In this document: positions 6,685 to 62,589 of the stretch, in pieces
How positions within the stretch are numbered: position 1 is the first letter of the stretch
Layout: every line of letters starts with the position of its first letter
Sequence record: OR437326.1
Strand: one strand, 5' to 3'
Length of the DNA stretch: 64,000 nt
From: Escherichia phage iGC_PHA_EC001
Program-made: the position numbers and the translations under genes
Notes under the pieces: model-generated
The model's database searches: none
Seen by the model: the letters and a program-made list of their open reading frames with translations, nothing else
Told to the model about the DNA's origin: nothing

Positions 6685-7077
6685 ATGAATCTAAAGACTA
6701 AAACTGTATTGAGTTTTGTTTTAATTGTTGTTCTTATTCTTGCCGGAATGTTTGCTTATAACAAGATACGTGAGTCTGGCTACAAAGATGGTGTTGCCTA
6801 TCAAACGCAAGTATATCAAACAGCCCAAGCAAAAGCAAAACAAGATTTTGATGTTCTTCAAAAAAGAGCAGATGAAGAAAGAGCATTATTAAATACTCAA
6901 ATAAACAACTTGTCTAAAAACAATGCACAATTAAAAGCAGATTTAGAGAAGAAGAAACAAACGATCAATGAGGATACAACGAATTATGCAAAAACTAATT
7001 CTGGCAGTATGTCTTGCTTTGCCCCTAATGATGACGGGTTGTTCATCATCAACAAAAGTTTCCCCAGTTCTTATTGA
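6685..7077 (+). CDS. i-spanin (Rz-like inner-membrane spanin subunit)
   Basis: N-terminal transmembrane helix (VLSFVLIVVLILAGMFAY) then long coiled-coil periplasmic domain; o-spanin gene overlaps its 3' end in another frame. Confidence 0.6.
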   Translation: MNLKTKTVLSFVLIVVLILAGMFAYNKIRESGYKDGVAYQTQVYQTAQAKAKQDFDVLQKRADEERALLNTQINNLSKNNAQLKADLEKKKQTINEDTTNYAKTNSGSMSCFAPNDDGLFIINKSFPSSY

Positions 7078-7312
7078 TGAGTGTAAGGCTGTAGCCATAG
7101 AAAAGGTTAAAGGTCCAGATTCGGACTTGATGGATAAAGTATCGACACCTGTGCCATACACTAAAAATCAAATTGCAAAAGGGGTTAGTAGATCTGAAGT
7201 TGTTAACAACCAAACTCAAAACAATGCTCTTTGGGAGCAAGATAGACGAAAGGTTCTAGGTTTACAAACATATATTAAAACACTGCAAGAAAAAGGTATT
7301 ATTGCTGAATAA
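6968..7312 (+). CDS. o-spanin (Rz1-like outer-membrane lipoprotein); start may be ATG at 6986
   Basis: Signal peptide plus lipobox (LALPLMMTG|C), Pro-containing mature part with a second Cys; begins inside i-spanin gene in a different frame. Confidence 0.55.
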   Translation: MRIQRIMQKLILAVCLALPLMMTGCSSSTKVSPVLIDECKAVAIEKVKGPDSDLMDKVSTPVPYTKNQIAKGVSRSEVVNNQTQNNALWEQDRRKVLGLQTYIKTLQEKGIIAE

Positions 7313-55099: not shown

Positions 55100-55378
55100 T
55101 TAAAATGGTTCGTTAGTCTCCATCATATATTCTGCTTCTAGTTCTTCCATATGCTTTCTAAATTGGAAAGCAATTTCTGCTACAGTTACATTTAAATCTT
55201 TTTCAAAAACTTCTGTAGAGCCTTCATAAAAACGAATACCGTCAATTAAAAGCCCTCCGTGGTAATCCCAATCACTTTCACGAGAAAGCGGGTTAGGCTC
55301 TTCATAATAGTAATCCACCTCCACAACTAAGGCTTTCCCGTTACGAGTGGTGTATTCAAAATCAAAAGTGTTAATCAT
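55100..55378 (-). CDS. hypothetical acidic protein (92 aa)
   Basis: ORF track; ATGA-type overlap with upstream gene. Confidence 0.4.
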   Translation of the reverse strand: MINTFDFEYTTRNGKALVVEVDYYYEEPNPLSRESDWDYHGGLLIDGIRFYEGSTEVFEKDLNVTVAEIAFQFRKHMEELEAEYMMETNEPF

Positions 55379-56322
55379 TATAGCTCCTCAAATAAAAGTC
55401 TACGACGCTCATTCAACACATCAATGTGATAATGAGTCCTGACATACTTAGCTAATGCTAATCCTTTCTCCATGCAAACATCGGGAGCACTTAATAAGTA
55501 TTCCGTAATATCTTTCCACTCGGAAGGTGTTTCAGCAAAGAATAACAAATCTTTAAACTCTTGTGGATGATAATTCTCACGAGGAGAACAGATCAAAGGT
55601 AAACCCTTAGCACCTGCCTCAAGAATTTTAAGATTGCTTTTTGCATTATTAAACACGTTATCAATCAATGGCGCAAGACTGATTTGATGACCATCGTAAG
55701 ATTCCATGTAGTTGGCATATGGTCTTACACCTTCATAAACACAAGTTGGTGCTACATTTTCTCTGATCACAGACCATTCACGACTACTTAAAACTTCAGA
55801 ATCCCTACGAAAACCACATATTGTAAGATCTTTACCAAAATCGGGCAAGATAGCCAAATCTTGTTTATGTGTTTCACTTCCAGCCCAGACTAATGGAGTT
55901 TTGGAGTAGCGATCACGGGTCAACACAAATTGACCTTCATCGTAAGGAAGTCCATTAGGGATTATGTGCACATTATCATTGTATTGTGAAAGTTCAACTT
56001 GCAAAGCAGGTGTCGTAGTTGTAACAAGATCGCTGTGCTCTAAAAACCATTTTAAATGTTCACGAATACCTGATTCAAAAATACCTTCTAGCATGTGTCC
56101 TTTTGGAATAACTAAAGAGTCATCCAAATCCATAACCATTTTAAAACCTAGGTTTTTAAGGGCTAAAAAGCCCTCTTTACCTTTTGTTGGCACCCCGTTA
56201 AAAACGAAAACGTTGTGTTTAGGTTGTGAAGAGAACTGCCTTGAGTAAGGCAGCACTACCCTATGGAAATCGCAGACACTATAATTGATTCCGTTACGAT
56301 TGTCAAGAATTATTTGTCCCAT
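55378..56322 (-). CDS. glycosyltransferase-like protein (GT-B-like), paralogue of 56330..57277
   Basis: C-terminal NAKSNLKILEAGAKGLPLICS resembles the GT-B nucleotide-sugar-binding motif; clear paralogy with the next gene. Confidence 0.45.
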   Translation of the reverse strand: MGQIILDNRNGINYSVCDFHRVVLPYSRQFSSQPKHNVFVFNGVPTKGKEGFLALKNLGFKMVMDLDDSLVIPKGHMLEGIFESGIREHLKWFLEHSDLVTTTTPALQVELSQYNDNVHIIPNGLPYDEGQFVLTRDRYSKTPLVWAGSETHKQDLAILPDFGKDLTICGFRRDSEVLSSREWSVIRENVAPTCVYEGVRPYANYMESYDGHQISLAPLIDNVFNNAKSNLKILEAGAKGLPLICSPRENYHPQEFKDLLFFAETPSEWKDITEYLLSAPDVCMEKGLALAKYVRTHYHIDVLNERRRLLFEEL

Positions 56323-56329
56323 ACTTCAC

Positions 56330-57277
56330 CTACAAACTTTCAATAACCTGGCGTCGCAACTCGTTTGCATCTGCCAGATTATAATGTGTTCGAACATGTT
56401 CAGCCAAGAACAAGCCACGATCTTCCCGATAGTTTGGATTGCGAAGAAGCTTAACAATTTCGTAATGCCATTCTGCTTTATTCTCTGCGTAAGCAACAGC
56501 GCGAGCATCTACAGGGTTAAAATAAGGTAATACCTTAGAACAAACAATTGGAATACCTTTTGCTCCAGCTTCCAGGATTTTGAGATTACTTTTACAATTA
56601 TTAAAATCGTTATCTACCAAAGGAGCTATAGCAATAGCATGACTTTCGTAAACACTCATGTAATTATCTAAATCTTTTACAGCGGCTTTATATTTGGCAT
56701 TTGGTAAATTTCTGCGAATCTTAATCCACTCTTGTCCCGTGATGCTTTGTGATGCTTCATATCCCGCAATAGTAAGAAGTTCATCATCGAAAGTATTAGA
56801 GACTAATCGTAAATCTGGTTCGTGACTAGCACCGCCAGCCCATACAACAGGGGTACCGGATGAACGATCATTTGACAAAGTGAATTGTCCGCTATCAAAA
56901 GGAAGTGCATTTCGGATCACAACGACATTTCTATTTAAGTGACGGATCTTATATGCCAAATATTCTGTAGTCACAATAACCACATCAGCAAGCTTAACCA
57001 TAGCTACAATAGCATGAGTGTTTGACTCGTATAGACTTGCTAAATAATGCTCTGGATTAAGTTGGTAAAAATCATCTAAATCTACAACAACCTTAACACC
57101 TTGACGTTTCAAAGATAAAACGTATTCTGCACCTTTAGAGTGGATACGGTTAAACACAACAATATCTTTCTTAGGTTGAAAATTATTGTTGTTAAATGGC
57201 ATAACAATACGATGATAGTCACAACCGCTATGAGGTTTTGCATCAATTTTTAGTTTAGACCATTTTTTATTTGACAT
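56330..57277 (-). CDS. glycosyltransferase-like protein (GT-B-like), paralogue of 55378..56322
   Basis: Shares blocks VWAGG..H..DL, NCKSNLKILEAGAKGIPIVCS, HVRTHYN with the neighbour; start trimmed to ATG 57277 which has AGGAGG 9 nt upstream. Confidence 0.45.
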   Translation of the reverse strand: MSNKKWSKLKIDAKPHSGCDYHRIVMPFNNNNFQPKKDIVVFNRIHSKGAEYVLSLKRQGVKVVVDLDDFYQLNPEHYLASLYESNTHAIVAMVKLADVVIVTTEYLAYKIRHLNRNVVVIRNALPFDSGQFTLSNDRSSGTPVVWAGGASHEPDLRLVSNTFDDELLTIAGYEASQSITGQEWIKIRRNLPNAKYKAAVKDLDNYMSVYESHAIAIAPLVDNDFNNCKSNLKILEAGAKGIPIVCSKVLPYFNPVDARAVAYAENKAEWHYEIVKLLRNPNYREDRGLFLAEHVRTHYNLADANELRRQVIESL

Positions 57278-57950
57278 GTGCCAGTGCCTCCTCATAGGAA
57301 ATTCGGATTTTCCCATTTTTAATATCCTCTAAAGATGCTTTATATTCTTCCCAGTTAATCCCGATAGCAGCTTCTTTCTCTTCTTTTGTCAGATTAGCAA
57401 AAGGCATAGGGTTGTTTCCAAAAACATCGTCTGGGTGGATATAAGCCATGATACGAAGTGGACAAGGTGTTGCCTGAATACCATGATTCAAACCAGCAGC
57501 TTGCAAACGGTGTCCCCATTCAGCATCTTCAAAACCATAGCCGTGAGTGTAAGGACGGAAATAACCCATCTTCTCAACAACGGCACGAGAATACATTGCA
57601 AATTGACACATTGCAAGTTCCCAGAGAATAACTTCTCCTTTGCTTCCAACAACTTTATCTTTGAAATACTCCGGCATACCAAAGAAATCCCATCCTCCAG
57701 AGACAGCTTGATCTACAAAGTATGTTTCCCATCCCTCCATGACTGGGTAGCAATCGTCGTCAAAAATAAACCAATAATCATAACCTTCTTCATAAAACTG
57801 GTGCATAAGTTCATTCCTGGCATAAGCTACACCTTTACGATCTGGATCGTTGAATACTCGAAAATCTGCACGTGGATCTGTTACAAGGTAGTCTTTAAGT
57901 GGACGGACACCTACAGTGATAACACCCACTCCAATTTTAATATTTTCCAT
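57267..57950 (-). CDS. glycosyltransferase-like protein (GT-A fold, DxD type)
   Basis: DxD-type motif in YDYWFIFDDDCYP and downstream YGFEDAEWGHRL typical of GT-A enzymes. Confidence 0.45.
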   Translation of the reverse strand: MENIKIGVGVITVGVRPLKDYLVTDPRADFRVFNDPDRKGVAYARNELMHQFYEEGYDYWFIFDDDCYPVMEGWETYFVDQAVSGGWDFFGMPEYFKDKVVGSKGEVILWELAMCQFAMYSRAVVEKMGYFRPYTHGYGFEDAEWGHRLQAAGLNHGIQATPCPLRIMAYIHPDDVFGNNPMPFANLTKEEKEAAIGINWEEYKASLEDIKNGKIRISYEEALAHVK

Positions 57951-57958
57951 TTTCTCTC

Positions 57959-58522
57959 CTAAATAGTTTTACTGTGATCATGACAGTGTAATAAATGATG
58001 TATAGACCGTTGAGGATTTGTTTGACCTAATCTGTAAATGTGAAACAGATACATTCCCCGCATCAATCCTAACCTCTTTCCTTTTTCATGTAAAGTGCGA
58101 GAGAAAATTAAGTCGAATTGGATAGATTTTTCTTCGAAAGGAATTTCATTCCACAATGATTTTCTAAAAAGCAAGAAGAAACCTGCCAGAGGTGTTCCGA
58201 AAGGAACTTCTTCAACACTCACTTTATGATATTCTCTTGCAATCTTAGCATATTCTATATGGTTTAGAATATCTGGATCATCATTAATTTGGTTAGAGAA
58301 AAGCTGATAACCACTGCCTAACCTGTTACAAGTTGCACCTATTACATCAAAAGGCGGGTTTGACATAACAAGCTCTTCAAGCATAGATGGTTGATCAGGT
58401 AGGAGGAACATTGTATCGGTATCTCTTAAACACACCCAACTATCATCTGGAAGAACGGCAATGGCTTCATTGATAGCCTTGCCGATATTTCCTGTCAGAT
58501 AGGGAGTAATATAATAAATCAT
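57959..58522 (-). CDS. possible glycosyltransferase-like protein (187 aa)
   Basis: DxD-like CLRDTDTMF; weaker than neighbours. Confidence 0.3.
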   Translation of the reverse strand: MIYYITPYLTGNIGKAINEAIAVLPDDSWVCLRDTDTMFLLPDQPSMLEELVMSNPPFDVIGATCNRLGSGYQLFSNQINDDPDILNHIEYAKIAREYHKVSVEEVPFGTPLAGFFLLFRKSLWNEIPFEEKSIQFDLIFSRTLHEKGKRLGLMRGMYLFHIYRLGQTNPQRSIHHLLHCHDHSKTI

Positions 58523-58539: not shown

Positions 58540-58731
58540 TTAACTGTCAGCTACAATCCCACGTTTAATCATTTCTTGTTGAATCTGGATCACACGATCT
58601 CGTGCTTCCATATATTCTTTAAAAGATTCTTGGAGATGGTCACGGGCTACGTCCCGTAGTTTAATCAGTTTGTCGTTTGTCACTTCTTGAAGAGAGATCT
58701 CGCCAGTTTCATTGGTCCCAAGCGTTTTCAT
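58540..58731 (-). CDS. hypothetical protein (63 aa)
   Basis: ORF track. Confidence 0.35.
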   Translation of the reverse strand: MKTLGTNETGEISLQEVTNDKLIKLRDVARDHLQESFKEYMEARDRVIQIQQEMIKRGIVADS

Positions 58732-58987
58732 TTACAACCTCCTTAATAGCTACTGCACAGTTCTTACAAATACATTGACCTTTGTTCTTAGAAATTTCAA
58801 TGTAAGGTTCATTTTCGTTTTCTCCGCGTCGTGAGTCGTATATTACTGTATTGAAGCAGACAACGCAAATGTTTTTAATAACGACATATTTTTGCACTTT
58901 CTGTTTAGTGCGAAAATTGACTTCAATGACTTCTCCCATCAATGAATCTCCCCTAAAATGTTGTTTTGAGACATTACTGCGGAGCAT
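58709..58987 (-). CDS. small Cys-rich zinc-ribbon protein (92 aa)
   Basis: CVVC ... CICKNC pattern. Confidence 0.35.
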   Translation of the reverse strand: MLRSNVSKQHFRGDSLMGEVIEVNFRTKQKVQKYVVIKNICVVCFNTVIYDSRRGENENEPYIEISKNKGQCICKNCAVAIKEVVNENAWDQ

Positions 58988-59223
58988 TCTACAGCATCAT
59001 GAGTCCTTGCAAAACGCTCCCACAACACAGCATCTACTTTAAGAACCATACAAGGATAAATACTGTCGTTGATCATATCAATGCTATATTTATCTACATC
59101 CTTTTCATCTTCCATAAACAAAGTAGCGTATGCTTCTAAATGCTTACGGGTGTAGTATACATCCTCTTCAGTAAGACCGACAACCAGGTAACTTGCTACA
59201 ACAACAGTATTATCTTCTTGCAT
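58939..59223 (-). CDS. hypothetical protein (94 aa, start trimmed)
   Basis: ATG at 59223 with GGAG upstream, immediately after stop of upstream gene; track start 59286 lies inside that gene. Confidence 0.35.
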   Translation of the reverse strand: MQEDNTVVVASYLVVGLTEEDVYYTRKHLEAYATLFMEDEKDVDKYSIDMINDSIYPCMVLKVDAVLWERFARTHDAVECSAVMSQNNILGEIH

Positions 59224-59224
59224 T

Positions 59225-59746
59225 TTAACTCCCCTTTGGTAGATAGAAACCATGCACTTTATCTCGATAAACAAGACGCATATCACGTTCCCAGTGTGTC
59301 CTTATATTCCGTTTCTTGAAGTATAGAGCACCTTTAGTAACATCTAAAACAGACCGCAATTCAGGAAAATGTTTCTCTAAATAAAGTAAACGCTCCGCTA
59401 TTGCTTTTGCTTCCTGCCACTTATCTTTCTCTGTTACGTTAAAAGTTTTCGCATATGAGAATTGTCCTTTCTGGAACAAGACTCCTCTGACTGTGTTAGG
59501 GAAGTAGGTATCATTTCTTCTGTTGATTACCACATTCCCAACGGCATTCATTCCTTTTTTACCCAGACCGCGACCTTCTGCGTAAATTGCACAAGCTAAT
59601 AGAATTTTATCATTATATTGCTTTGTACATTTGTGAACTACTTTAGCGGTTTTTACGTTTGCAGCTTCGGCTTTCGCCACAACAGGTGTAAATGTAAAAG
59701 CAGTTAAGGATAGTAACGCAACTGTTACAAAGTTTTTTATCAGCAA
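59225..59746 (-). CDS. secreted cell-wall hydrolase (SleB / Hydrolase_2-like), candidate signal-peptide endolysin
   Basis: N-terminal signal peptide ending AKAEA; core ILLACAIYAEGRG...GMNAVGNVVINRRND..FPNTVRGVLFQKGQFS matches the SleB-type hydrolase signature. Confidence 0.55.
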   Translation of the reverse strand: MLIKNFVTVALLSLTAFTFTPVVAKAEAANVKTAKVVHKCTKQYNDKILLACAIYAEGRGLGKKGMNAVGNVVINRRNDTYFPNTVRGVLFQKGQFSYAKTFNVTEKDKWQEAKAIAERLLYLEKHFPELRSVLDVTKGALYFKKRNIRTHWERDMRLVYRDKVHGFYLPKGS

Positions 59747-59807
59747 ATTTTGCCTCCTTTTTAAGTTAACGAATTTCTAGTATAACACGATAGAGGCTTT
59801 ATTGCAA

Positions 59808-59827
59808 GAGGGGGATTTCTCCCCCTC
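59808..59827 (-). terminator. 8-bp GC-rich hairpin between TerD-like and hydrolase genes (weak U tract)
   Basis: GAGGGGGA-TTTC-TCCCCCTC; flanks not strongly U-rich on the transcribed strand. Confidence 0.35.
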
Positions 59828-59845: not shown

Positions 59846-60448
59846 TTATGGACATTCATACCATTCTTTTTTACCACCGAAGGCCATCACCACATCACAA
59901 ATATCCAGACCAGCTTTACCTACACCATATGCTTTCAGCTTCCATTCCCCATCTTCACGAACCAAGGAAGCCACGTGGCAGATTGTGTTGCCAGCTACTT
60001 CAGGAGCCAGGAAGTCAAAATCCAGAATTTCCACATTGCGCTCGGAGTCGAAGATTTTAAGCATACCTTCAGAAGCATGACCAAAACGTTTCAGACCTGT
60101 ATCATCATCAATGGTCAGAACAAAGGCAATCTCTTGTGCATCAGGAGAGATTTTAGCCAGAGTAATATCAATCTGCTCCATGCTGCCAGTTCCATCACGA
60201 ACATCGTCACCAGCGAAGGTAGAACGTTCAGGATCAAACTTGTTAGCATAGCAAACCAGATGACGTGCAGACAGCATTTCAGGATTACCAGCGGCATTGT
60301 GACGACAAACCAGTGCACTTACATCCAGATCCAGTTTAGAATCAGATTTCCAAGAGAATTCCAGGCGCAGTTCTTTCAGAGCCGGAGCAACTTTCTTCAG
60401 GGAAATTTTTTCGCTAGAGCCTTTTTTCAGGGAAATTTTATCAGTCAT
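59846..60448 (-). CDS. TerD-family protein
   Basis: Tandem ISLKKG...ISLKK N-terminal repeats, DLDVSALV, GDDVRDGTG acidic metal-binding-like loop, IAFVLTI, EDGEWKLKAYGVG all parallel E. coli TerD. Confidence 0.7.
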   Translation of the reverse strand: MTDKISLKKGSSEKISLKKVAPALKELRLEFSWKSDSKLDLDVSALVCRHNAAGNPEMLSARHLVCYANKFDPERSTFAGDDVRDGTGSMEQIDITLAKISPDAQEIAFVLTIDDDTGLKRFGHASEGMLKIFDSERNVEILDFDFLAPEVAGNTICHVASLVREDGEWKLKAYGVGKAGLDICDVVMAFGGKKEWYECP

Positions 60449-60733: not shown

Positions 60734-60962
60734 TTCTTCCTCCTAATGTTATCTCCGGTTTGTATATACGAAGAATTATAGCATTTTCATTTTCTTTGTC
60801 AACCCATTCTTCATAATCGGGCCATACATGAATCTCTACTCTACTTACAATATCTTCCATTCGCACAGTCCCAATGAAATACTCTTTGAGACTGCGCATA
60901 ATGAAAGCTTCTCTCTCGCGCCAATAATTTTCTATGACTTGAGAGGCAAGCTCGTCGATCAT
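60714..60962 (-). CDS. hypothetical protein (82 aa)
   Basis: ORF track. Confidence 0.35.
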   Translation of the reverse strand: MIDELASQVIENYWREREAFIMRSLKEYFIGTVRMEDIVSRVEIHVWPDYEEWVDKENENAIILRIYKPEITLGGRSVKLRN

Positions 60963-61753
60963 TTTTTAGCACCCACTTTAACAACCCACTCTCCGAACTC
61001 TTCAGATAAGAGTTTGTCATAAAGCTCTGAATCTGTCAAGTCTAAATCTTTAATGCCAATAAAACCAACATTATCATAAGCATTTGCCAGTTCTTTCAGG
61101 AAGCCAAACTTCTCATTACCAACGCCAACCATGAACCAATAAATAGGTTTATTCTTATTCTCTTCGATAAGACGACGAACAGCACTAGGATCACCATTCT
61201 CACCATCCGTCTGGAAGAATACAACACTAGGGGTAACGTCAGCACCTGGTTCAGATACAGCTACAACTTTTTCACGCTCTACAGACACTGTTTCAGTTTT
61301 ACCAAGCAGACGATTAAAGAAGCCTTTCTTTGGAGCCTCCTCTTGTACCACTTGTTTAGTGGTAATATATTTAGTAACAGTGCCAAAATACTCATCGTAG
61401 ATATCCGCCATTACAGGGGCGTAATTTGTTCCACCTCCGATACGAACATTACGCATACATTTACCAACATAGTCATCGTAAACATCTGCTGTTGCTGGAG
61501 TAAGCTCTTGGGAACTCGTATTGAAGGCCCACATATCAATTTGTTGATTATCGTCGAACAGCATACCAAAAGGAAGCAGTTTACCTACAAAATCACTCAC
61601 TACCCCACTAGAATATAGACCATGCATACTACCAGAAATATCTAGAGCACATGCTACACGAAGAACAATCTTACCTTCATTCAGGTTCTTATTCTTTTTC
61701 AGAGAGAAAGCAAGGTTTTCTTGACGTTTTTTCAGGCTGATTTTCTCGGACAT
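60959..61753 (-). CDS. von Willebrand factor A domain protein (TerY-like) with TerD-type N-terminal repeat
   Basis: MIDAS motif in ACALDISGSMHG (DxSxS); N-terminus MSEKISLKK echoes the TerD N-terminus. Confidence 0.55.
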   Translation of the reverse strand: MSEKISLKKRQENLAFSLKKNKNLNEGKIVLRVACALDISGSMHGLYSSGVVSDFVGKLLPFGMLFDDNQQIDMWAFNTSSQELTPATADVYDDYVGKCMRNVRIGGGTNYAPVMADIYDEYFGTVTKYITTKQVVQEEAPKKGFFNRLLGKTETVSVEREKVVAVSEPGADVTPSVVFFQTDGENGDPSAVRRLIEENKNKPIYWFMVGVGNEKFGFLKELANAYDNVGFIGIKDLDLTDSELYDKLLSEEFGEWVVKVGAKK

Positions 61754-62033: not shown

Positions 62034-62589
62034 GCATACCTCCTCTACCAATTTTGAAGCCCAAATCGTAAGCTTCCTTAGTGATCTTTTGTAACTCACT
62101 TATAGGAAGTGTTACAAGAGGATCATCTTCTTCAATTTCCATCTTGTCATCTTCTGTTTCAATGAGAGTATTATGCACTTTGTGATAAGGGTTGTCAACA
62201 CGTTTAAACTTATTCTTTTCTGTGCTGAAAAAACAATCTGGATCTTCTTCACCATCACCCCAACCTTGGTTAGGATCTCCGTCAGATTGTTCTGTAGGGA
62301 TTTCACCTGTAAAGTACTCTTCCAGCACCATAGCGATACCGTCCCTTGGATTTGAGGAATGCATCAAATCACAAACCTTACTCCAATCCATAGCCCATTC
62401 AAATCGTTCACGAACGCCGTTTTCATCCTCCTTTCCAGAGAAAACACAACCATAACTATCATAGTTGCCATACATCTCTTCAATAACAACACCGTCCTTC
62501 AAAAGAAAAAGATAACAAGGTGATCCGTCGAAAGAAGTAGAAAGGGCAGCTTTGCCCGATTCTTTGCACAAAAAGCTAAAACAACCCAT
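62026..62589 (-). CDS. hypothetical acidic protein (187 aa)
   Basis: ORF track. Confidence 0.4.
   Translation of the reverse strand: MGCFSFLCKESGKAALSTSFDGSPCYLFLLKDGVVIEEMYGNYDSYGCVFSGKEDENGVRERFEWAMDWSKVCDLMHSSNPRDGIAMVLEEYFTGEIPTEQSDGDPNQGWGDGEEDPDCFFSTEKNKFKRVDNPYHKVHNTLIETEDDKMEIEEDDPLVTLPISELQKITKEAYDLGFKIGRGGMRV

Follow-up and report, generated by a model that had tools for sequence, protein, structure and literature searches.

A SleB-like hydrolase with a predicted signal peptide in the replication module of the Escherichia phage iGC_PHA_EC001, a probable accessory to the T4-type lysozyme of its genus

SleB of Bacillus is a germination-specific lytic transglycosylase whose catalytic domain is represented by the structures 4F55 and 4FET. 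True SleB requires muramic delta-lactam for lysis of the spore cortex, and the murein of E. coli contains none. Endolysins that are exported without a holin are known from other phages: Lys44 of Oenococcus phage fOg44 has a cleavable signal peptide, and P1 and phage 21 encode signal-anchor-release (SAR) endolysins. Each of these enzymes carries a muralytic domain of a lysozyme family behind an N-terminal Sec-dependent signal, is the only endolysin of its phage, and is encoded beside a holin or pinholin. The SleB fold is also found outside phages, in the C-terminal domain of T6EC3, a toxin delivered by the type VI secretion system that has a cognate immunity protein and no signal peptide of its own; it is toxic to E. 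coli when present in the periplasm, a toxicity that its Glu-to-Gln mutant does not show (PMC11148199). Here we analyze a gene in a 64,000-nucleotide stretch (the window) from Escherichia phage iGC_PHA_EC001 (OR437326.1), whose product combines a domain of the SleB/CwlJ superfamily with a predicted export signal. With somewhat more confidence than doubt, we favor reading it as a Sec-exported accessory enzyme that cleaves peptidoglycan, and not as the principal endolysin.

The positions of the gene and of the other features are given in Table 1. An earlier note on this DNA, made from the letters alone, had described the open reading frame (ORF) as a secreted SleB-type cell-wall hydrolase; the ORF exists, lies on the minus strand (the note named none) and ends with a stop codon at 59225-59227. 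Its TTG is the sole plausible start because the next in-frame Met, residue 66, falls inside the Hydrolase_2 domain. The predicted mature protein has 147 amino acids, a mass of 17.0 kDa, and a pI of about 9.9. The Pfam search returned PF07486 (Hydrolase_2) over residues 62-168, with 64.1 bits against a cutoff of 27, an E value of 1.9e-17, and coverage of profile positions 3-100 of 100; in PHROGs, the protein matched PHROG 938 (phrog_938 "endolysin", E 1.2e-18). Homologues were found by tblastn in 1093 phage records, which puts the ORF far beyond chance. Identity was at least 95% in 64 records and 60-80% in 67; the remainder, below 60%, came from Vequintavirinae (rV5-like), T5-like Demerecviridae, Pseudomonas Pakpunavirus, and others.

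Phapecoctavirus comprises phAPEC8-like E. coli myophages of roughly 150 kb in the subfamily Stephanstirmvirinae. The 6 kb around the gene are 98-99.4% identical to many published genomes of this genus and 60-80% identical to the sister genus Justusliebigvirus. In this well-sampled genus, the SleB-like gene belongs to the known core and is already annotated; published Phapecoctavirus records label it "putative cell wall hydrolase," "spore cortex-lytic enzyme," or "endolysin." The orthologues in EF1-1 (gp196), ESCO37, Mt1B1_P17, SKA64 (ORF224), iGC_PHA_EC001, and their kin are the same gene, with nothing substantive that differs: proteins are 98-99% identical within Phapecoctavirus and about 75% identical in Justusliebigvirus; they are equally long and share the signal peptide, the synteny with TerD upstream, the promoter, and the TTG start.

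To place the protein structurally, 1.84 billion cluster representatives were searched, which gave 16,922 Hydrolase_2 family members at E ≤ 1e-3; a diverse family alignment of 94 sequences drawn from these representatives was used for AlphaFold2 and for conservation. It superseded a shallow alignment of 14 clade sequences, whose model had a predicted local distance difference test (pLDDT) score of 48 and was unusable. The model from the 94-sequence alignment had a mean pLDDT of 92.8. When the PDB was searched with Foldseek, the only significant matches were 4F55 and 4FET, both catalytic domains of SleB (E 2e-5 to 4e-5, probability 1.00, target-normalised template modelling score 0.69-0.77), with no other PDB fold below E = 1; against viral models, the protein matched dozens of phage "cell wall hydrolase SleB" proteins. 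In the sequence alignment, Glu57 corresponds to the Glu of "vYgEsRG" in 4F55 and 4FET. Across the 94 homologues, E57 and R76 are the only invariant columns, and Y55, R59, N75, Q95, F96, G139, W152, H165, and F167 are near-invariant. The catalytic assignment of Glu57 is based on this alignment and on PMC11148199, which cites the Glu of the SleB motif as catalytic. The protein has a SleB/Hydrolase_2 domain with the corresponding fold and catalytic residue, and the core proposed in the earlier note was borne out both by the PF07486 match and by a model that resembles SleB domains alone in the PDB.

It is a member of the Hydrolase_2 superfamily and not SleB proper, so that the description "SleB-type" holds at the superfamily level and fails for the true enzyme. 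The NCBIfam SleB equivalog TIGR02869 scored 51.7 bits against a cutoff of 236.5. The Pfam scan gave Hydrolase_2 only, with no PG_binding_1 domain N-terminal to the catalytic domain, where residues 27-45 form a short linker, and no ypeB-like neighbor was found near the gene among the window ORFs with Pfam and PHROGs. The phage protein shares with Bacillus SleB the fold, the Glu of Y-x-E-x-R-G, and the N-R and Q-F motifs; unlike it, it is only about 25% identical, lacks PG_binding_1 and a YpeB partner, and comes from a lytic E. coli phage without any spore setting. Because the host lacks muramic delta-lactam, the substrate specificity must differ from that of Bacillus SleB. The need of true SleB for muramic delta-lactam favors one form of an alternative explanation, namely that the N-terminus does not function as an export signal and that the protein stays in the cytoplasm or inner membrane, either as a holin-dependent second lysin or inactive on E. 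coli murein. Inactivity is opposed by T6EC3, whose toxicity means that the SleB fold can act on ordinary Gram-negative murein. T6EC3 resembles the phage protein in its fold, matching catalytic Glu, and periplasmic action on E. coli, and differs in its delivery, its immunity protein, and its non-phage origin; its SleB domain was undetectable by sequence in PMC11148199.

The export signal was called by feature analysis, with OmpA and PhoA as positive controls and T4 E, the phage's own T4-like lysozyme, and P1 Lyz as contrasts. The N-terminus consists of an n-region MLIK (+1), a 14-residue hydrophobic core FVTVALLSLTAFTF inside a 20-residue uncharged stretch, and a c-region P-VVAKA/EA (the slash marks the predicted cleavage, at 26/27) with a helix-breaking Pro at -6. 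Its values resemble those of OmpA and PhoA and differ from those of T4 E and the phage's T4-like lysozyme. Among homologues, the c-region drifts (AQA/E, GIA/E, VHA/E, ALA/A, SEA/K, VDA/K, INA/E) while the residues at -3 and -1 stay small in every case, and the rV5-like (PVVA/AP) and T5-like (NSHA/TH) homologues likewise carry signal peptides, with cleavage predicted at VVA/A and SHA/T. A hydrophobic N-terminal segment is present in 129 of the 149 nearest cluster representatives. In the AlphaFold2 model, residues 3-17 form a separate helix, no secondary structure occurs between residues 18 and 37, and mean pLDDT drops to 67 for residues 21-30, the stretch that joins this helix to the globular domain. 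The Sec-type signal peptide of the earlier note is thus supported by a tripartite N-terminus like that of OmpA and PhoA and by a -3/-1 rule kept in diverged homologues, and we infer that the protein is exported by Sec and cleaved after Ala26. A lipoprotein was rejected, as the N-terminus has no lipobox Cys. A virion-associated lysin was also rejected as unlikely, as a signal peptide is incompatible with virion assembly in the cytoplasm and the homologue of jumbo phage PA5oct is absent from virions.

Reports on related proteins disagree on this point. A signal peptide was reported for the Certrevirus homologue CB7_83, which was toxic upon expression in E. coli (data not shown; PMC7344957). According to PMC10698182, signal peptides were not detected in these phage proteins, which favors the no-export alternative; this source contains clear errors, such as at least 99% identity to lambda and T4 PDB entries for these proteins. 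The supplement of PMC8223927 gives no signal-peptide call for a Phapecoctavirus entry. Conservation of the signal-peptide features across lineages, the prediction for the Certrevirus homologue, the separate N-terminal helix with its lower-confidence joining stretch, and a covariation of Cys pairs typical of oxidizing compartments all speak for export, and we regard the no-export alternative as highly improbable.

Cys40 and Cys52 are invariant within the clade. In the 94-member alignment, 30 sequences (own clade and rV5-likes) have only the C40 and C52 pair and 49, including those of T5-like phages, have only C49 and C87; unpaired Cys are rare. Mutually exclusive, covarying pairs are the pattern expected of disulfides formed in an oxidizing compartment. 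A C40-C52 disulfide would therefore form in the periplasm, and the pattern suggests that the disulfide staple was relocated during the evolution of the family.

The same N-terminus and the same Cys pair could also belong to a true endolysin, either the principal or a redundant one, that is exported in advance; collapse of the proton-motive force by a holin or pinholin would then release it from an inactive or membrane-tethered state. An export signal followed by a muralytic domain is the exact layout of Lys44 and the SAR enzymes; Gly/Ala/Ser/Thr make up 40% of the uncharged stretch of 20 residues (50% in P1 Lyz, the control), which could cross the membrane as a SAR domain does; and Cys52, five residues from the catalytic Glu, recalls the disulfide-regulated SAR lysozymes. 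The Pro at -6 and the A-x-A motif, both conserved and followed by a 20-residue linker, argue for cleavage over a releasable anchor.

A second enzyme speaks against this pre-exported endolysin. EF1-1 gp90 has 166 amino acids, a Pfam Phage_lysozyme match (E 5e-11), and an E/D/T catalytic triad context; its N-terminus is that of T4 lysozyme, without an export signal. This T4 E-type lysozyme is at least 95% identical in 64 phage records and 60-90% identical in 68 more, counts that match those of the SleB-like gene (64 and 67). All 64 close relatives carry this cytoplasmic enzyme too, among them TSP7_1, ESCO37, and Mt1B1_P17, the closest relatives of the window. In EF1-1, the gene lies about 22 kb before the point that corresponds to the start of the window, and the earlier note missed it because it is outside. 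A genome announcement lists both enzymes as "two lytic proteins" (PMC10793346). PMC10282059 describes the Hydrolase_2 protein as the sole endolysin of one Phapecoctavirus, a statement in conflict with the T4-type lysozyme gene in 64 records of the genus. As the genus also carries a standard T4-type lysozyme, the SleB-like gene is probably accessory.

Like Lys44 and the SAR enzymes, the protein is predicted to pass the membrane independently of a holin; unlike them, it belongs to Hydrolase_2, lacks a neighboring holin gene, and occurs together with a T4-type lysozyme of the cytoplasm. Compared with a canonical, holin-dependent endolysin, it has the muralytic domain, but its predicted signal peptide is at odds with accumulation in the cytoplasm, and it has its own putative promoter within the replication module and shows no linkage to a holin or the spanins or, as far as that promoter tells, to late transcription. 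No holin, antiholin, or immunity partner and no adjacent membrane-protein ORF was found next to the gene; three small downstream ORFs (58540..59217) had no Pfam match, transmembrane segment, or signal peptide. The small gene upstream of the T4-like lysozyme of EF1-1 is hydrophilic and not a holin. The spanin pair is about 52 kb from the hydrolase, directly upstream of the terminase gene and outside any lysis cassette. "Remote from the spanins," as the earlier note put it, is true yet uninformative, because the T4-like lysozyme is also outside any cassette and the lysis genes are dispersed.

The Certrevirus CB7 homologue has an overlapping, downstream holin-like gene with two transmembrane segments (PMC7344957); the phage under study has no such gene. 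This arrangement and the toxicity of CB7_83 favor the pre-exported endolysin, as do the label of the PHROG and of many records and the SKA64 paper, which treats the protein as the endolysin of the phage. Against it stand the soluble T4 E-type lysozyme conserved in every member of the genus, the canonical endolysin or second peptidoglycan hydrolase encoded elsewhere in the genomes of other lineages, the lack of an adjacent holin-like gene, and a sigma-70 promoter within the replication module. We consider the pre-exported endolysin rather unlikely. Of the two roles offered in the earlier note, the signal-peptide-exported endolysin is weakened by the second enzymes of this genus and of other lineages, and the virion-independent enzyme that remodels peptidoglycan fits the evidence better.

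Comparison with other phages supports an accessory enzyme. Five unrelated lineages of large virulent phages of Gram-negative bacteria, with more than 1000 genomes, hold the gene (Stephanstirmvirinae, Vequintavirinae, T5-like Demerecviridae, Pakpunavirus, and some T4-likes), in all five among genes of replication or nucleotide metabolism, and four of them have a further enzyme on record, either a canonical endolysin or another peptidoglycan hydrolase; coexistence with a second endolysin and adjacency to a holin were checked in example genomes, out of the 1093 records. Pakpunavirus MAG1 has an endolysin-holin-spanin cassette (gp096-094) and a separate sleB between a DNA ligase and a phosphohydrolase. 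In T5-like phages, an M15 endolysin gene adjoins the holin gene and a distant SleB-domain gene lies in the early region; Vequintavirinae combine an M15 or lysozyme-like enzyme with a SleB-like gene. In the T4-like DLP6, the SleB-like gene accompanies RNase H, an exonuclease, and dCMP deaminase.

The products CB7_83, CR3_087, Ec2_002 (JES2013), AKFV33 ORF81, TrudiGerster bas27_0077, MAG1 gp156, and DLP6 are, like the protein of the window, single Hydrolase_2 domains, with 150-190 amino acids, 31-38% identity, an N-terminal signal peptide or transmembrane segment, and an early/replication placement, and most of their lineages keep a different peptidoglycan hydrolase or canonical endolysin as well. 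Their gene neighbors are not the same: the rV5-likes have rIIA and MoxR, the T5-likes a recombination exonuclease, and Pakpunavirus the ligase and phosphohydrolase. The T5-like homologues use the C49/C87 pair, and MAG1 gp156 has an uncleaved-looking transmembrane segment with reversed charge bias.

Two of these loci merit separate description. In the rV5-like JES2013 (3995-6474 of its stretch), the SleB-like gene follows a MoxR ATPase gene and overlaps the start of rIIA by 4 nt; a terminator-like hairpin, CCCCGC-ttcg-GCGGGG, with a T-run lies just upstream of its GTG start. The product of rIIA is membrane-associated, and the gene acts in lysis inhibition and exclusion. MAG1 gp156 (3824-4384 of its stretch) has no cleavable signal peptide; an acidic N-terminus, METLE, precedes a 15-residue hydrophobic segment with basic residues after it, a charge bias that predicts a cytoplasmic catalytic domain unless the segment is a SAR-like or reverse anchor.

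The 99-nt gap between terD and the hydrolase gene is the only sizeable intergenic gap nearby and holds a hairpin followed by a promoter. The promoter matches 9 of 12 hexamer positions plus the TG. A scan found 42 sigma-70-like sites against 27 ± 5.5 expected, and a 9/12 match alone is not significant in such AT-rich DNA. Justusliebigvirus ESCO32 keeps the promoter layout (TTGCAA-17-TGtTACAAT), the Shine-Dalgarno sequence, and the TTG start. In a 140-kb metagenomic relative with a hydrolase of 45% identity, a hairpin is followed by TTGCAT-17-TGcTATAAT, with diverged spacer sequences, and translation could likewise begin at a TTG, in GGAGG-N6-TTG; in the rV5-like gene, the start codon is GTG. 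Hairpins equivalent to that of the window are present in ESCO32 and in the metagenomic relative. The terminator scan did not flag the hairpin, whose T-run is weak; it is likely a 3'-end or terminator element of the upstream unit. Taken together, the layout points to an independent transcription unit that would be read by the host RNA polymerase and modestly translated. Near-consensus sigma-70 promoters were also seen elsewhere on the minus strand of the module, at 60775..60802 (12/12), 62170..62198 (11/12), and 56278..56306 (11/12), and the enrichment of promoter-like sites is consistent with transcription of the module by the host polymerase.

Based on these features, the following mechanism can be proposed. 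With the hairpin, the extended -10 promoter, the strong Shine-Dalgarno sequence, and the conserved weak TTG, expression would be modest, driven by the host RNA polymerase, and would come from the replication-module side and not from a late lysis cassette. The host Sec machinery would export the small pre-protein, and signal peptidase I would cut it after Ala26. The mature, basic, single-domain enzyme would fold in the periplasm with its C40-C52 disulfide staple and use Glu57 as its single catalytic acid. It would cut the MurNAc-GlcNAc glycan backbone, most likely as a lytic transglycosylase by homology with SleB. Independent of any holin, it would loosen or remodel the sacculus during the latent period, before or alongside the lysis system, while the T4 E-type lysozyme, holin, and spanins would perform the actual lysis. 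The bond specificity, the timing, and the physiological role are inferred.

Several points weigh against an accessory, pre-lysis enzyme. A murein hydrolase that is exported and active ahead of lysis has to be held in check somehow, and no such restraint was identified. The protein is named the endolysin in one paper and in several GenBank records, and the SleB-domain protein of PA5oct was proposed as an endolysin because it is absent from virions. The report of PMC10698182 on signal peptides, discussed above, also counts here. A sigma-70-like promoter is no proof of early timing, as such matches are common in AT-rich DNA. Finally, the literature searched yielded no experiments on the SleB-like protein or any phage homologue, only annotations and the "data not shown" remark on toxicity.

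The neighborhood raises a third explanation, a periplasmic role outside lysis, such as superinfection exclusion, release of anhydromuropeptides for the nucleotide-sugar pools of the neighboring glycosyltransferases, or local wall remodeling for cell enlargement. The same-strand neighbors recognized with Pfam and PHROGs are TerD, vWA-TerF, TelA, four glycosyltransferases, a primase/helicase, and a DNA polymerase; the earlier note's "early/replication module" is correct. The order TelA...vWA-TerF-TerD-Hydrolase_2...glycosyltransferases-primase is preserved in the 140-kb metagenomic phage. This association with glycosyltransferases and Ter-type stress genes, the consistent placement in five lineages, and the weak start codon, which suggests a low dosage, favor such a role. 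So does the abundance of exported single-domain Hydrolase_2 proteins, as judged from the 16,922 representatives and the hydrophobic N-termini of those nearest; if many of these are cellular, the fold is not intrinsically lethal in the periplasm. However, the Ter/glycosyltransferase adjacency is lineage-specific and interrupted by the hairpin and promoter, which implies no operon link. A functional link to the Ter cluster was not adopted, since the synteny, although conserved within the subfamily, is absent from rV5-, T5-, and Pakpuna-like phages. Nothing pointed to a specific partner, inhibitor, or substrate; a role outside lysis is purely speculative, and we judge it improbable.

The four consecutive glycosyltransferase genes lie at 55378..58522 on the minus strand. 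One of them (57267..57950, minus strand) gave weak, below-cutoff matches to TAGT (TET-associated glycosyltransferase; E 1e-3) and to a PHROG of the T4 beta-glucosyl-HMC-alpha-glucosyltransferase, which hints at DNA glycosylation or modification of surface sugars. On the plus strand, the large terminase contains a candidate mini-intein of about 160 amino acids within the Walker A P-loop (GAAG-SGKS). The alignment to Pfam Terminase_6N does not begin before residue 202, as would fit an insertion, and no Hint or intein family was found in the terminase at E ≤ 0.01.

Table 1. Positions of the SleB-like gene, its predicted signals, and other features of the window
Feature	Position	Strand	Remarks
CDS, 173-aa pre-protein	59225..59746	-	One Hydrolase_2 (SleB/CwlJ superfamily) domain behind predicted signal peptide
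Predicted Sec signal peptide MLIKNFVTVALLSLTAFTFTPVVAKA, codons 1-26	59669..59746	-	Predicted signal peptidase I site AKA/EA
TTG start codon	59746-59744	-	Sequence reading
Glu57 codon (GAA)	59576..59578	-	Aligns with catalytic Glu of SleB, motif Y-x-E-x-R-G
Cys40 (59627-59629) and Cys52 (59591-59593) codons	59591..59629	-	Putative periplasmic disulfide next to catalytic helix
Shine-Dalgarno AGGAGG	59753..59758	-	6 nt upstream of TTG start
Sigma-70-type promoter	59779..59807	-	-35 TTGCAA 59807-59802, 17-nt spacer, extended -10 TGtTATACT 59787-59779
GC-rich hairpin GAGGGGGA-GAAA-TCCCCCTC	59808..59827	-	Between terD stop and promoter; -17.2 kcal/mol, z = -3.4 (RNA fold)
TerD	59846..60448	-	Tellurite-resistance-type set, just upstream of hydrolase
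vWA-TerF-like	60959..61753	-	Tellurite-resistance-type set
TelA	63155..63994	-	Tellurite-resistance-type set, runs off window
Spanin pair	6685..7077, 6968..7312	+	Overlapping; i-spanin N-terminal transmembrane segment, o-spanin lipobox LMMTGC
Large terminase, 691 aa	7322..9397	+	...YGGAAG/CVSAETEYLTKDGW...RGDHCFVTGN/SGKS... (slashes: ends of candidate insertion)
10 tRNA genes	3902..5819	+	Met, Arg, Ser, Asn, Thr, Gly, Gln, Pro, Ile, Met

Since the genome encodes a T4-type lysozyme at another site, "endolysin" should not be the default name of the gene. Automated pipelines give that label to more than 1000 such phage genes, for which the comparative evidence points to a second, exported enzyme. 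For the mining of phage lysins as antibacterials, the basic mature domain of 17 kDa offers a candidate enzybiotic. We tentatively suggest, as a possibility with more doubt than confidence attached, that exported single-domain Hydrolase_2 enzymes form a distinct and overlooked class of "pre-lysis murein remodelers," kept by phages besides the canonical endolysin. Members of this class may be expressed from host-type promoters within the replication module and, instead of lysing the host themselves, may serve, for example, in sacculus priming, superinfection exclusion, or muropeptide salvage. The finding bears on why unrelated large virulent phages keep a periplasmic enzyme of the SleB fold besides their endolysin, a question that concerns the whole family and is not specific to this window.

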